From UHGV virus genome UHGV-0040698: a stretch of DNA of 20,193 nt; one strand, 5' to 3'. The DNA is from a virus. Made by a program: the position numbers and the translations under genes. Below the pieces are notes generated by a model. The model was not told where the DNA came from and did not search any database. It was given only the letters and a program-made list of their open reading frames with translations. Shown piece after piece: positions 4,400-9,178 of the stretch. Position 1 is the stretch's first letter; the number at the start of each line of letters is the position of its first letter.

Positions 4400-4722
4400 A
4401 CTTTCAGACCCCTCTCATGTAACCAGTGGGCTGCACGCAACCTGGCGTTCTCCTCACCGGCAAGCAGTGCGCGGATGATACCGACCGCTTCGCTGTCGTC
4501 GTCCTTCACTGCGGTATGAAGCGTGATCCCCCGGGCCACGCCACGCTTTATCGTGATGACGCCTTTTTTCTCCAGTGCGCGAAGATGCTCCACCGCTGCA
4601 TTCACCGAACGGTATCCCAGCATGGTTGCCACCTCCTGATTGGTTGGCGGAAAGCCACGTTCTTTCTGGTAAGAAATCAGCATATCCAGCACCTGCTGCT
4701 GGCATTGAGTTAACGTCGTCAT
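4396..4722 (-). CDS. LexA N-terminal DNA-binding-domain protein without peptidase domain
   Basis: LTQCQQQVLDMLISYQKERGFPPTNQEVATMLGYRSVNAAVEHLRALEKKGVITIKRGVARGI parallels the LexA winged-helix N-domain (LT.RQ.EV...I......G.PPT..EIA..LG.RSPNAAEEHLKAL.RKGVIEI..G.SRGI); 108 aa, no S24 Ser/Lys domain; GGAGA SD. Confidence 0.7.
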   Translation of the reverse strand: MTTLTQCQQQVLDMLISYQKERGFPPTNQEVATMLGYRSVNAAVEHLRALEKKGVITIKRGVARGITLHTAVKDDDSEAVGIIRALLAGEENARLRAAHWLHERGLKV

Positions 4723-5372
4723 GCCGCCATCTCCCTGACCAGTTTTTCTGCCTGCTGGCGAACCTGCGCCAGAAACGCCTCACCACATGCCTCAAGTTCA
4801 TCGCGCCCGATGTAGCTGATTGCCGGTCCCTTCCAGGTCTTGTCGAAAACAGCAATAGCACCAGCGAAGAAAGCGCCTGTCGGCACCTGCTTCTCATCCT
4901 TCGGGATAAACCAGGCAGGCAGTTCAAAACCAATACGCCCGCGAATAAAAGCAATATGATCTGCATCTTCCGGCCACCACACTTCGCTGGTGGCAGCTTT
5001 GATCAGGAAAACATAGCGCCCGCCTTTATCACGCATGGCACTGGCATGCTTCATGATGTAACGCATGCCGGTGATGTATTGCCCCTCATGCTGACTGGCG
5101 CGGCTGTATGGGGGATTACCAAAGGCAGCACCTTTAAGCTCCGCAAGACGTTCTGACCAGTCATGCGCCAGCGCGTTGTCTTCCGCCGTGTAATACGCGG
5201 CACATTTGGCGTTATCACCGTCAGTGAACAGATCCAGAACAAACGGGCCAAACAGGGTGTTAATTCCCCAGAAAATGTTGTCCGGCGTGCGCCACTGATC
5301 GCCCACTTCCTTCAGTTCATGGGCTGGTTTGTTCCGCAGTTCCACCAGCGCCTGGCAATATTTATTACTCAT
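4719..5372 (-). CDS. Phage N6-adenine DNA methyltransferase (Dam-like)
   Basis: FGNPPYS catalytic motif IV of N6-adenine MTases; start set at ATG 5372 (TAATG overlap with upstream stop, GGGGG SD) rather than the GTG at 5405. Confidence 0.75.
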   Translation of the reverse strand: MSNKYCQALVELRNKPAHELKEVGDQWRTPDNIFWGINTLFGPFVLDLFTDGDNAKCAAYYTAEDNALAHDWSERLAELKGAAFGNPPYSRASQHEGQYITGMRYIMKHASAMRDKGGRYVFLIKAATSEVWWPEDADHIAFIRGRIGFELPAWFIPKDEKQVPTGAFFAGAIAVFDKTWKGPAISYIGRDELEACGEAFLAQVRQQAEKLVREMAA

Positions 5373-5860
5373 TAAGCCCCCACGTAATTCCCTGACAGAT
5401 ACCACTCTTCACCCGATGCAGCGCGCTTGCTGCTTTTCCGTAAGCACCGCTCACGACGCGCCAGAAAATTGTTTCGTTCTGGCTGGGAGTGGCTTTCACG
5501 GAATGCCGCCATCCACACGGTTGCAGCACGACGGTATAAGCCCCTGGACTCCAGTTCTTCCGCCTGGCGGGTCAGGCACAAAATCACACGGGGATCGTTA
5601 GTGCCGACATAGAAATTGCGCACAGGTCTGGTTTCACGAACTGGTTGTGGTTCCGGTTCCTGCGCTCTCTCAGTCAGGCGCGGGAAATGTCTGCGTGTAT
5701 CTCCTTCACAACGGTGAGCCACACGCCCACTCTGACGTAACTTGCTTGCTGACTGCAGAACGCGCTGCCGTGAGTAACCGGCAAAAGCATCCGCAATATC
5801 TCCGGAAGTACAGCCCGGATGGGCTTCAATGAATTTCTGAACGTCATTCAAAAGACTCAT
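5372..5860 (-). CDS. Hypothetical regulator with PerC-like C-terminal region
   Basis: C-terminal AEELESRGLYRRAATVW resembles PerC-family activators; ATG at 5860 two nt after the upstream stop with GGGGG SD (track start 5866 is GTG). Confidence 0.5.
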   Translation of the reverse strand: MSLLNDVQKFIEAHPGCTSGDIADAFAGYSRQRVLQSASKLRQSGRVAHRCEGDTRRHFPRLTERAQEPEPQPVRETRPVRNFYVGTNDPRVILCLTRQAEELESRGLYRRAATVWMAAFRESHSQPERNNFLARRERCLRKSSKRAASGEEWYLSGNYVGA

Positions 5861-5862
5861 GC

Positions 5863-6804
5863 TCACCCCCTGAATCCTGCCGGGATTTGGCTGTAGTCCA
5901 CGTTGTCGTAACTGGCTTTGAAGTACGGGTCTTCGCGTTTTTCGGTGTACGTGCTGACGGACGGCGATAAGCGCAGGGAAAGCTCATCCCATTTTTCCCG
6001 CAGCTTCGACGGGCTGAGCACGTTACGGCACCAGAACGGATCGCGACTGACGCGGCTGTACATCTCGCAGATTTGTTTATGAGTACGACCATCCTGCACA
6101 CACATCAGGCGAATTTCGTTTGCCCAGGCTGTCCAGTTCGGTTCTTTGGGACGAACCACCTCGCCGTCACATTCGGCGGCCTGCTCGTACAGGGCGATGA
6201 TTTTTTTCCAGAGCCACTGTGCGCAGGTCAAATCATCCTGCGTTCCCCACTGGCGCTTTTTAGGGCTGAATACAACCGCATCAGGATGGCGAGTTAAAAA
6301 CTCCTGTTCAGCCGTCTGCGTGTCCGGTTGCGAAGCGTCCGGACGAGAAGTTTTTTTATCTGACGGATCATGTTTTGATTTTACTGACGGATCCCCGCCA
6401 GATTCTGACGGGTGAAAACCCGCTTTTTTGCCAGATTTCGACGCATCAAATTTTGACGGGTCAGATTTTGATGCGTCAGATTTTGACGGGTCAGAATCTG
6501 ACAGTTGAGAAAATGCCGCTGCCTGAAGCTTCGCAACGTTAAGCTGATAAACATTCGACGCATTGCGGTTACCCTGGCGACGCGCCTTACGCGTTAACCA
6601 GCCTTCTGCTTCCAGCCGTGCGATAGCCGTTCTGACGGTACTCATTCCCGCGCCAATCTGGCGGGCAATGGTTTCAATTGATGGCCAGCACACACCTTCG
6701 TCATTACTGAAATCAGCCAGGCGGGCCATAATTGCCACGCTGGATAATTTCATGCCTGATGCAGCGCAACCATCCCATACATAGCCGGTTAATTTAGTGC
6801 TCAT
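5863..6804 (-). CDS. Phage replication initiation protein (N-terminal winged-HTH, repeat-containing linker)
   Basis: N-terminus CWPSIETIARQIGAGMSTVRTAIARLEAEGWL is an HTH of replication-initiator type; the gene contains DNA iterons that encode the SDPSKSDASKSDPSKFDASKS repeat; GAGG SD. Confidence 0.7.
   Translation of the reverse strand: MSTKLTGYVWDGCAASGMKLSSVAIMARLADFSNDEGVCWPSIETIARQIGAGMSTVRTAIARLEAEGWLTRKARRQGNRNASNVYQLNVAKLQAAAFSQLSDSDPSKSDASKSDPSKFDASKSGKKAGFHPSESGGDPSVKSKHDPSDKKTSRPDASQPDTQTAEQEFLTRHPDAVVFSPKKRQWGTQDDLTCAQWLWKKIIALYEQAAECDGEVVRPKEPNWTAWANEIRLMCVQDGRTHKQICEMYSRVSRDPFWCRNVLSPSKLREKWDELSLRLSPSVSTYTEKREDPYFKASYDNVDYSQIPAGFRG
6355..6506. repeat. Iteron array inside the replication gene (candidate origin of replication)
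   Basis: About eight imperfect direct copies of a ~14-15 bp unit (ATTTTGACGGGTCAG, ATTTTGATGCGTCAG, GATTCTGACGGGTG ...) with TGACnnGTCA cores, analogous to ori-lambda inside gene O. Confidence 0.6.
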
Positions 6805-6813
6805 GACCGACCT

Positions 6814-7152
6814 CTATTTCCCTGAATTTACGACGAAACTGTTCGAGCGGGCTGAAGCACTCATGCTCATAGCCTTCGCGGAGGTAGATAACACGTTGTG
6901 TTTCCGGCTCCCAACGAATGACTCTGACGGGCACTCCGTAGTGATCTTTGAACCAGCGGTTAACTTGTCGCAAAGGACTGTCTCCTTCTGCCGGTTGAAA
7001 TCACCCACAGCCCACTCTGCAAAGCTGTGGGTTACAATTTCCCTGTCACCTGGTACATTTACTGCATAGCAATACTCCACCTTCGCTTTTCCACCCGGTA
7101 CAGGAAGCGCAATCAGTTGCGAGCGACGGTAGTGTGTTGTTAAACTGTTCAT
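6814..7152 (-). CDS. Hypothetical protein (112 aa)
   Basis: ATG at 7152 overlaps the upstream stop (ATGA) and has GGAGA upstream; stop 7 nt before the replication gene start; no recognisable motif. Confidence 0.4.
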
Positions 7153-7712
7153 GCGTTAGTTTCTCCACAGTCACGACACGCCACGGCGCCCGGAGCTGCA
7201 CACTCGCGGGCGTCACTACTTTCTGAAACGCAAAAGATTTTGTAGACCAGTGCTGCATGCTCCTGCAGCTTCGAAATTGAGAGGTACAGCTCATCGTTAA
7301 TTGCTGTCTTCTCATGCGGTTCCACTACACCGTCTTCAATTGCTGAACGAATCTGTTTTGAATAACTGCCGATCTGTTCAATGACTTCCAGCAGGCGTTG
7401 GTTGATATCGGCGTTGTCCACATCCTCGACGTCAGGAAGAGACACAAAGACGCCATTTGCAGACTGCGCCACAGCATCAGCAATGAAGTGAGTGCCACCA
7501 GCACGCTGTAAAACCATTGCCCATCCCAGCGGGAAAATCTGATCGCCATCTGCACGAAGGCGGTTGAATAAAGCGTTTTCTGTTACATCGAGCCAGTCAG
7601 CCGCTTCAGCGTAACCACCCGGCAACGCCGCGATAGTTTTTCTGACAGCTTTCACGTACCACTCAGGCTGTTTTTCTATTTTCCAGTGATGCTTACCCAC
7701 GGTTAGCCTCAT
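7149..7712 (-). CDS. CII-like / YdaT-like phage regulatory protein
   Basis: Position directly downstream of the Cro-like gene as in Rac ydaS-ydaT; 187-aa product; weak SD; family assignment by context and size only. Confidence 0.45.
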
Positions 7713-7743
7713 CGTTCTGTGGTTAAAAATTGAAAGTGTTCTG

Positions 7744-7944
7744 CTAATCTTTCGGATAGATATCCGGTCTTAAGTCAGATTTCGTAATTGCACCTGACGT
7801 GCATTGCTCAAGTTTTTTAGCCAGCACAAAACTGGCTTTTTTATAGCCATTGAAAACCAGCCGTAAGTAGCCAGGTGTTGAGCCAACTTTTCCGGCCAAC
7901 TCGCCCTGCTGTTCTTTGGTTAAAGAGTCCCAATACGCTTTCAT
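7744..7944 (-). CDS. Cro-like HTH regulator (YdaS-like)
   Basis: 66-aa product MKAYWDSLTKEQQGELAGKVGSTPGYLRLV...SDLRPDIYP; GGAGGT SD 9 nt before ATG 7944; divergent from the cI-like gene; the track's 167-aa version lacks an SD. Confidence 0.7.
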   Translation of the reverse strand: MKAYWDSLTKEQQGELAGKVGSTPGYLRLVFNGYKKASFVLAKKLEQCTSGAITKSDLRPDIYPKD

Positions 7945-8034
7945 ACAATATGTACCTCCGGTGTACATATTACATGATTGAAATGAACCTTCAAGATACT
8001 TGTACCTTAACGGTACAAGGGTTTTAATTTCGTT
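7945..8034. promoter_or_regulatory. Immunity-region intergenic: two palindromic operators and divergent promoters
   Basis: ATGTAC-N7-GTACAT at 7950-7968 and perfect CTTGTACC-N5-GGTACAAG at 7999-8019; minus-strand promoter TTGAAG-N16-TAATAT for the cro-like gene overlaps the first operator. Confidence 0.6.
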
Positions 8035-8709
8035 ATGAAAACAATCCATGACATCCGGCGGTCTAACGCCAGAAAACTGAGAGATGGTGTTGGCGGGAAT
8101 TCTTCCTTTGCCACTATGATTGATCGCGAGCCAACCCAGACCAGCAGGTTTATGGGAGATGGTGCTACTAAAAATATCGGTGACAGCATGGCACGACACA
8201 TCGAAAAATGTTTCGACCTGCCTGTCGGATGGCTCGATCAAGAACACCAGACAACGAACATCACAAAAAAACCTGATGTTTCAATCACTAATAAACAAAT
8301 CACATTAGTCCCTGTCATATCATGGGTACAGGCCGGAGCATGGAAAGAAGTTGGATATTCTGAGGTTGATTTGAGCACAGCAGAAACGTATCCCTGCCCT
8401 GTACCCTGTGGGGAAATGACTTATATCTTGCGGGTGATAGGTGATTCAATGATTGATGAGTACCGCCCGGGAGACATGATTTTTGTCGATCCTGAAGTAC
8501 CTGCCTGCCACGGTGACGACGTTATTGCATTGATGCACGATACAGGCGAAACCACCTTCAAAAGGTTGATAGAAGATGGGACACAGCGTTATCTCAAAGC
8601 GTTAAACCCAAACTGGCCTGAGCCTTACATTAAGATCAACGGTAATTGCTCTATAATTGGTACAGTGATTTTCTCAGGAAAACCAAGAAGATACAAAATC
8701 AAAGCCTAA
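8035..8709 (+). CDS. cI-like prophage repressor with S24 (LexA-type) autopeptidase domain
   Basis: C-terminal GDSM...FKRL Ser/Lys dyad spacing typical of S24 peptidases; N-terminal CI-type DNA-binding region; divergent from the cro-like gene. Confidence 0.85.
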   Translation: MKTIHDIRRSNARKLRDGVGGNSSFATMIDREPTQTSRFMGDGATKNIGDSMARHIEKCFDLPVGWLDQEHQTTNITKKPDVSITNKQITLVPVISWVQAGAWKEVGYSEVDLSTAETYPCPVPCGEMTYILRVIGDSMIDEYRPGDMIFVDPEVPACHGDDVIALMHDTGETTFKRLIEDGTQRYLKALNPNWPEPYIKINGNCSIIGTVIFSGKPRRYKIKA

Positions 8710-8718
8710 TCAATGTTT

Positions 8719-8745
8719 ATGAACCTGCTTCGGCAGGTTTTTTTA
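8719..8745 (+). terminator. Rho-independent terminator after the repressor gene
   Basis: GAACCTGC-TTCG-GCAGGTT stem with UUCG tetraloop followed by a 7-T run, 10 nt after the cI-like stop. Confidence 0.7.
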
Positions 8746-8747
8746 TA

Positions 8748-8780
8748 CTTGACAATGTACCTTTGGGATACATAATGTAC
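8748..8780 (+). promoter_or_regulatory. Sigma70-like promoter with embedded ATGTACC operator half-sites
   Basis: TTGACA (8748-8753), 16-nt spacer, CATAAT (8770-8775); ATGTACC occurs in the spacer and over the -10, the same half-site as the cI/cro operators. Confidence 0.6.
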
Positions 8781-8902
8781 CCAAGCGAAACAACGAACAG
8801 GCAGGACGCCCACGAAGTAGCCGCCTGGGGCATATGAAGTCCAGGATGATTCGTTGAGTCATGTTGTGCCACTAGGCACTCATGTTAAAGCAGGTGTATG
8901 AA

Positions 8903-9178
8903 ATGAAAGTCCAGATTTTAAACAATAACTGTGAAGTCGTTTGGTCATACGACATAGCCGCCCCTGTAGATCAGAGCGGCGATAGCTGGACCAATGGGAA
9001 ACATCAGATTATGGCTGGAGTTGTGTTCTCTTTACGCCGTGCTTTGGAACAGGCTGAAGTATTTCCATCAGACCCTGAATGGAAATGGCCTTTTTCTATT
9101 TGTCCAAATTCGGAGAGCACATTTCAGAAAATTGGTCAGAAAGTCGCACTCGAAGAGCATCAGCCAACTGTTTCCTGA
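8903..9178 (+). CDS. Hypothetical small protein (91 aa)
   Basis: AGGTG 8 nt before ATG 8903; first ORF after the repressor-controlled promoter; overlaps the convergent ORF 9096-9341 by 83 nt so one of the two may be spurious. Confidence 0.35.
   Translation: MKVQILNNNCEVVWSYDIAAPVDQSGDSWTNGKHQIMAGVVFSLRRALEQAEVFPSDPEWKWPFSICPNSESTFQKIGQKVALEEHQPTVS

Follow-up and report, generated by a model that had tools for sequence, protein, structure and literature searches.

[quoted passage not shown] The RefSeq names of these genes in E. coli are ymfK and ymfT, and in K-12 MG1655 they constitute the repressor/cro pair of the cryptic prophage e14. The repressor contains a Peptidase_S24 domain (PF00717, E=1.5e-26), also matches the lambda CI C-terminal domain (E=2e-9), and in its C-terminal half resembles the structures of lambda CI, UmuD and LexA; alignment indicates that Ala100-Gly101, Ser138 and Lys176 are conserved across homologues. 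A Pfam search of the N-terminal domain returned no HTH match, and the N-terminal 75 residues gave weak matches to the Repressor chain of PDB 5D50 (E=6e-4), which we take to be Rep of Salmonella phage SPC32H, and to 7NKV (E=0.05); the 7NKV and 8C3K chains are presumably CI of prophage CP-933P.

On the minus strand, the PR operon continues beyond cro with a gene for a cII-like regulator of the YmfL family. It is directly followed by a 112-aa ORF (6814-7152, minus strand) that has no Pfam or NCBIfam match and occupies the position of ymfM in K-12 e14, a gene described in the literature as the SOS-inducible cell-division inhibitor SfiC. A replication gene (5863-6804, minus strand) lies downstream of cro in the same region and harbours, at 6384-6506, five to six tandem 15-bp repeats (CAGATTTTGACGGGT-like), an arrangement reminiscent of an iteron-type origin located within the initiator gene, as in lambda O. 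An ORF at 4719-5405 (minus strand), which follows the replication genes downstream, is found at the position of the 'DNA adenine methylase' gene (dam) of SfV.

Table 1. Genes, promoters, candidate operators and terminator of the immunity region (window coordinates; a dot marks a feature to which no strand is assigned)
Feature	Coordinates	Strand	Details
cII-like regulator (YmfL family)	7149..7712	-	Pfam Phage_CP76 E=1.4e-13; NCBIfam YmfL E=2.7e-50
cro-like gene, 66 aa	7744..7944	-	weak Pfam matches YdaS_toxin and HTH_3; corresponds to ymfT/croE of e14 and cro of SfV
OR1-like operator TGTACCTCCGGTGTACA (palindrome 1; extended 7950-7968)	7951..7967	.	exact match; PWM 19.6 bits; conserved in 26 relatives
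PR-like promoter for cro	7967..7994	-	TTGAAG (7989-7994), 16-nt spacer, TAATAT (7967-7972)
OR2-like weaker operator TGAACCTTCAAGATACT	7984..8000	.	fifth-best PWM score in the window, 9.6 bits
PRM-like promoter for cI	8000..8028	+	TTGTAC (8000-8005), 17-nt spacer, TTTAAT (8023-8028)
OR3-like operator TGTACCTTAACGGTACA (palindrome 2; extended 7999-8019)	8001..8017	.	exact match; best PWM score, 23.1 bits
cI-like repressor, 224 aa	8035..8709	+	Peptidase_S24; corresponds to ymfK/cohE of e14 and cI of SfV
intrinsic terminator after cI	8721..8740	+	hairpin followed by a T-run; annotated terminator in SfV; conserved in relatives
PL-like early promoter	8749..8776	+	TTGACA-N16-CATAAT; 11/12 consensus positions; directed away from cI
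OL1 operator TGTACCTTTGGGATACA	8756..8772	.	one mismatch to the core pattern; PWM 22.2 bits
OL2 operator TGTACCCAAGCGAAACA	8776..8792	.	PWM 14.7 bits, fourth-best score in the window

The intergenic region contains two palindromes. As proposed in a preliminary description of this DNA, the first (ATGTACCTCCGGTGTACAT, 7950-7968) has the form ATGTAC-N7-GTACAT, and the second (CTTGTACCTTAACGGTACAAG, 7999-8019) is a perfect palindrome over 21 bp, with two 8-bp arms flanking a 5-bp spacer. The half-site said to be common to them was recovered as well, with both palindromes reducing to TGTAC-N7-GTACA, which can be written as TGTACC-N5-(G/T)GTACA, at 7951-7967 and 8001-8017. Exact copies of this pattern occur twice in the 20-kb window, compared with a mean of 0.01 in 100 dinucleotide-preserving shuffles, none of which contained two. 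When up to one mismatch was allowed, three sites were found against 0.46 expected, the sole additional one being located at 8756-8772. With two mismatches allowed, the count (9 found, 5.4 expected in shuffles) showed no enrichment; loose matches elsewhere in the window are therefore meaningless, and those at 2953, 5225, 16650 and 18483 were dropped. The hexamer TGTACC/GGTACA is present in 16 copies, compared with 5.6 expected, and 11 of the 16 fall within 7052-8781, five of them in the operators described below and six as isolated half-sites inside the neighbouring coding sequences (7052, 7097, 7283, 8325, 8400 and 8659).

Sites built on the common half-site overlap both divergent promoters, at the start of PR, at its -35 region and in the core of PRM. 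The TTGAAG-N16-TAATAT promoter that had been assigned to cro on the minus strand is present, and its position and TTG/TAnnnT cores are kept in diverged relatives. The term 'well-formed' used for it was generous, because the promoter agrees with the consensus at only 8 of 12 positions and falls below the threshold of the consensus scan. The overlap with a palindrome noted at the same time also holds, as the -10 hexamer and palindrome 1 share 1-2 bp, so that the palindrome covers the start site of PR, predicted near 7960. The spacer of this site, OR1, additionally contains the Shine-Dalgarno sequence of cro, GGAGG (7955-7959, minus strand). OR2, which deviates from the core at 3 of 12 positions, overlaps the -35 region of PR, and its centre lies 43 bp upstream of the cI start.

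For cI, we identified the promoter as TTGTAC-17 nt-TTTAAT, considering that there is no Shine-Dalgarno sequence before the gene, that a TnTAAT hexamer is found 6-9 nt ahead of the cI ATG in all relatives, and that dRNA-seq in K-12 placed ymfK among five leaderless E. coli mRNAs (PMC4681348). The start of this PRM-like promoter coincides with the A of the ATG at 8035, which yields a leaderless cI mRNA. OR3 is located between the -35 and -10 elements of the cI promoter, occupying positions -34 to -18; the strongest, perfectly symmetric site is therefore embedded in the promoter core. In several relatives (L008, L010, L012, L014, L016, L022, L023, L027, L028 and L032-L035), an in-frame upstream ATG would extend the repressor by 2-22 residues, across the operators; these extensions are probably artefacts of ORF calling, since both the MKT start and the preceding -10 hexamer are kept.

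A second group of sites is found downstream of cI, beyond the terminator. The PL-like promoter located there is invariant in relatives and is an annotated promoter in phage Ayreon. OL1 lies between its -35 and -10 elements, and OL2, 20 bp away centre-to-centre, covers its start. Across relatives, the half-sites of OL1 reach 2.0 bits, compared with 0.1-0.9 bits for the spacer; in OL2 the left half is conserved, while some relatives have only a weak right half or none. The equivalent promoter in K-12 is directed towards ymfJ, ymfH, xisE and intE, and this orientation towards xisE/intE fits reports of SOS-inducible e14 excision. Two further features were observed in this part of the module: a promoter-like TTAAGA-N16-TATAAT (10/12 positions) at 8630-8657 on the plus strand, within the 3' end of cI, and, in Hafnia phage yong2 (locus L003), a tRNA-Gly(CCC) gene at 2582-2655, just downstream of the PL-like promoter and operators, which is absent from the window.

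To compare the sites across relatives, we used the Hafnia phage yong2 (70%), the Edwardsiella phage EPP-1 (67%) and 29 genome loci whose repressors are 43-100% identical to that of the window; conservation was calculated from an alignment of 26 diverged relatives, ranging from Enterobacterales to Rosenbergiella, in which the window formed the 27th row. Across the 26 diverged loci, no change is seen in the half-sites TGTACC/GGTACA, whereas the 5-bp spacers are free to vary. At OR3, the half-site positions carry 1.8-2.0 bits, except for a degenerate G/A position (1.3 bits), compared with 0.2-0.4 bits at the five positions of the spacer. Invariant half-sites combined with free spacers are the signature, at the level of sequence, of a dimeric protein-binding site, which sets them apart from an RNA stem and from neutral conservation. 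At the position of OR2, many relatives have TGAACC-N5-GGTACT or TGTACC-N5-GATACT. Wherever both OR1 and OR3 were identified in an enterobacterial relative, they are spaced by exactly 50 bp; counted by hand, the distance is 50-51 bp in Halomonadaceae loci and in Pseudomonas phage vB_Pae_CF60a, which have the same three-site layout.

A PWM built from the sites of the relatives only gave its five highest scores in the entire window at 8001, 8756, 7951, 8776 and 7984, in that order. All but the last exceed the mean shuffle maximum (7.9 bits) by a wide margin, with one of 100 shuffles reaching 18.0 bits and thereby exceeding the score at 8776. Two lower-scoring matches were seen in coding sequence. 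One, at 8400-8416 within cI (8.5 bits), may simply reflect the conserved codons for PVPCG; the other, at 8987-9003 (TGGACCAATGGGAAACA, 8.0 bits), is borderline relative to the shuffles and lies in the first ORF downstream of the PL-like promoter.

The motif tracks the recognition helix of the repressor, as judged from the compared loci. It is found upstream of all 31 repressors with the helix DRE[P/A/S]TQxSR and in none of 49 loci encoding a homologous repressor with a different helix, GTNSSY[L/I]SQVR. The repressor of the Pseudomonas phage, whose N-terminal domain is 59% identical, has the same helix, and both the motif and the three-site layout are kept there.

These comparisons bear on several ways of explaining the palindromes. 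That they have no function and arose by chance or from the base composition of an AT-rich intergenic region would agree with the lack of enrichment of the two-mismatch pattern, but has virtually no chance of being correct in view of two exact matches where 0.01 are expected, half-sites that are conserved with free spacers across genera, and a motif that co-varies with the recognition helix. It is also very improbable that palindrome 2 acts as an intrinsic terminator or RNA hairpin on the plus strand, with an 8-bp stem followed by GGTTTTAATTT, and does not bind protein. The terminator scan lists 7999-8019, and the predicted RNA fold of the palindrome has an energy of -13.1 kcal/mol (z = -3.8); in relatives, however, the T-run is not conserved and only the -10-like TnTAAT is; what is kept of the arms is their sequence, with no compensatory exchanges, and it recurs in the half-sites of four other sites that lie outside any hairpin context. 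Moreover, palindrome 2 is part of neither main transcript, because transcription of cI begins beyond it, at the ATG, and transcription from PR leads away from the palindrome. It is conceivable, although on balance we doubt it, that OR comprises two strong sites only and that 7984-8000 is conserved solely as the -35 region of PR: the sequence has three core mismatches, its score is only slightly above the average shuffle maximum, and the CAA in its spacer is the complement of the -35 TTG, such that its conservation could partly stem from the -35 element alone. On the other hand, conservation reaches past the -35 hexamer to either side, with ATGAAC and GGTAC kept, and a right half close to the consensus (GGTAC) or a perfect left half (TGTACC) is seen at this position in many relatives.

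A different question is which protein reads the sites. If they were real operators recognised by one phage protein only, or by a host factor, there would be no shared CI/Cro switch of the lambda kind, a scenario that we consider improbable. In its favour, the assignment of CI and Cro as binding proteins is drawn from sequence comparison, Cro is of the YdaS family with an HTH unlike that of CI, and the motif is accompanied by Cro homologues just as consistently as by CI (33% identity in the case of the Pseudomonas phage Cro), so that co-variation alone cannot single out CI or Cro as the reader. Against it, sites are present on both PR/PRM and PL, as expected of a maintenance repressor, and to our knowledge CI and Cro share their operators in every characterised lambdoid switch. 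A host factor in particular is unlikely, given that the motif accompanies the phage module in hosts unrelated to one another, through Escherichia, Hafnia, Edwardsiella, bacteria of the Halomonas group and Pseudomonas phages.

Taken together, the palindromes are very probably two of five operators (TGTACC-N5-GGTACA, 17 bp) of a lambdoid lysis-lysogeny switch of the e14/SfV type. The comparative evidence from gene layout, conservation and co-variation with the recognition helix supports the view, put forward in the preliminary description, of a lambda-like immunity switch with its own repressor specificity. That description had recognised operators, but its account was incomplete: it had missed OR2 (7984-8000), the OL pair (8756-8792) and the position of palindrome 2 within the cI promoter.

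The layout of OR and OL in phage lambda is well established and offers a frame for comparison. Common to both systems are the divergent cI and cro genes, two-fold symmetric operators of 17 bp, a self-cleaving S24 repressor, a leaderless cI mRNA, three OR sites (at the PR start, at the PR -35 region about 43 bp upstream of cI, and in the PRM core) and a separate operator cluster on PL; the placement of OR3 in the cI promoter is that of lambda OR3. A leaderless cI mRNA transcribed from the maintenance promoter is a hallmark of lambda but is not obligatory for the family. The switch described here differs in its half-site, TGTACC versus TATCACCGC in lambda, in having two OL sites instead of three, and in a Cro of the YdaS family. 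The spacing of the OR sites is also different: OR2 and OR3 abut, at 16-17 bp centre-to-centre compared with 23-24 bp in lambda, and OR1 and OR2 are 33 bp apart, unlike in lambda. No gene for an N-type antiterminator, a lambda feature, was identified in the window.

The binding sites of other known regulators are likewise distinct. With up to one mismatch allowed, no site for LexA (CTGT-N8-ACAG), lambda CI (half-site TATCACCGC), 434 (ACAA-N6-TTGT) or P22 (TNAAG-N4-CTTNA) was found in 7900-8060 or 8700-8830, in agreement with the earlier remark that the half-site is unlike the lambda, 434 and P22 operators and the LexA box. The operator of E. coli TrpR, which has GTAC ends, was set aside as a host-factor match, as its GTAC elements are 10 nt apart compared with 7 nt here (judged by eye) and the motif follows the phage module. 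Among the N-terminal-domain matches listed, the next-closest well-known coliphage repressor is the cI of H-19B. The cI of the Stx phages H-19B/BP-4795 is 42% identical in the N-terminal domain and is encoded in the same gene layout; the recognition helix of H-19B (SPSQLTQVSG versus REPTQTSRFMG here) and its intergenic repeats, in which TGTACC does not occur, are different, indicating a different immunity specificity. The repressors of the 5D50 and 7NKV/8C3K structures are weakly homologous in the N-terminal domain, and their recognition helices differ; the 5D50 repressor is reportedly inactivated by an antirepressor and not via an S24 domain.

Based on this arrangement, the switch could operate as follows. 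Dimers of the CI-like repressor (YmfK/CohE type) would block the cro promoter PR by binding to OR1 at the start site and to OR2 at the -35 region, and would bind to OL1/OL2 to block the strong leftward-type PL downstream of cI. The centre of OR2, at -43, coincides with the placement from which lambda CI activates PRM, and by analogy its occupancy may stimulate cI transcription here too. Excess CI, or Cro after induction, would occupy OR3 and shut off cI synthesis, given that OR3 lies between the -35 and -10 elements of the cI promoter. Upon DNA damage, RecA would stimulate the repressor to cut itself at Ala100-Gly101, by means of Ser138/Lys176, and this would release PR, which serves cro, the cII-like ymfL, the division inhibitor ymfM and the replication genes, as well as PL. 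In this scheme we infer which protein binds to which site, and the order of occupancy, cooperativity and PRM activation are proposed by analogy with lambda. The abutting arrangement of OR2 and OR3, unlike that in lambda, might prevent their simultaneous occupancy. There is a small chance that the switch is wired differently from lambda, with OR2 and OR3 mutually exclusive or OR1 and OR3 pairing via a short loop; the leaderless cI would then be autoregulated by a logic that has not been described for lambda, 434 or P22. What novelty remains resides in the fixed and unusual spacing, behind which a variant of the regulatory logic might lie.

The module itself is widespread and has been annotated before. 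Over 7700-8900, the window shares 98.1% identity with Shigella phage SfV and 96-99% with SfIV, the cdtI phage, Ayreon, 2H10 and Stx2c phages, and 7935-8040 matches the ymfK-ymfT intergenic region of e14 in K-12 MG1655 base for base. The module is present in 1324 of 5426 complete E. coli genomes, with 99.9% identity to chromosomal ymfK/ymfT. The immunity region of SfV and e14 is the same module as that of the window, with nothing of substance different. Repressor and Cro binding sites in e14 were reportedly identified in 2004 by Mehta, Casjens and Krishnaswamy on the basis of similarity to SfV. The SfV record U82619.2 annotates a 69-bp 'putative operator region' (26377-26445) that corresponds to 7950-8018 of the window and includes both palindromes. 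In publications, YmfK/CohE is named an 'SOS-sensitive repressor' or a 'CI-like repressor', and as of 2020 its control of e14 genes was described in papers as likely only. The full-text literature that could be consulted yielded no binding or footprint study of these sites; the TGTACC in PMC9769523 is a primer and not an operator report. The finding is therefore correct but ordinary, being already known as a prediction, given that the SfV record marks this stretch as a putative operator region. The public annotation of SfV gives the region only, without individual sites, and leaves the OL pair unmarked; the present analysis adds the single sites, together with their conservation and the assignment of the promoters.

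Conceptually, this is another lambda-like switch, and no current view is changed by it. The repressor-operator pair could serve as an orthogonal part in synthetic circuits, and the operator consensus TGTACC-N5-GGTACA, together with the map of sites, would make the regulation by YmfK/YmfT in K-12 directly testable. The switch controls e14-type prophages, carried by roughly one in four complete E. coli genomes, K-12 among them, and the same switch is present in the serotype-converting phages SfV and SfIV, in Stx2c phages and in CdtI phages; it therefore governs SOS-induced excision, the division block exerted by YmfM (SfiC) and, in some relatives, the induction of toxin phages.
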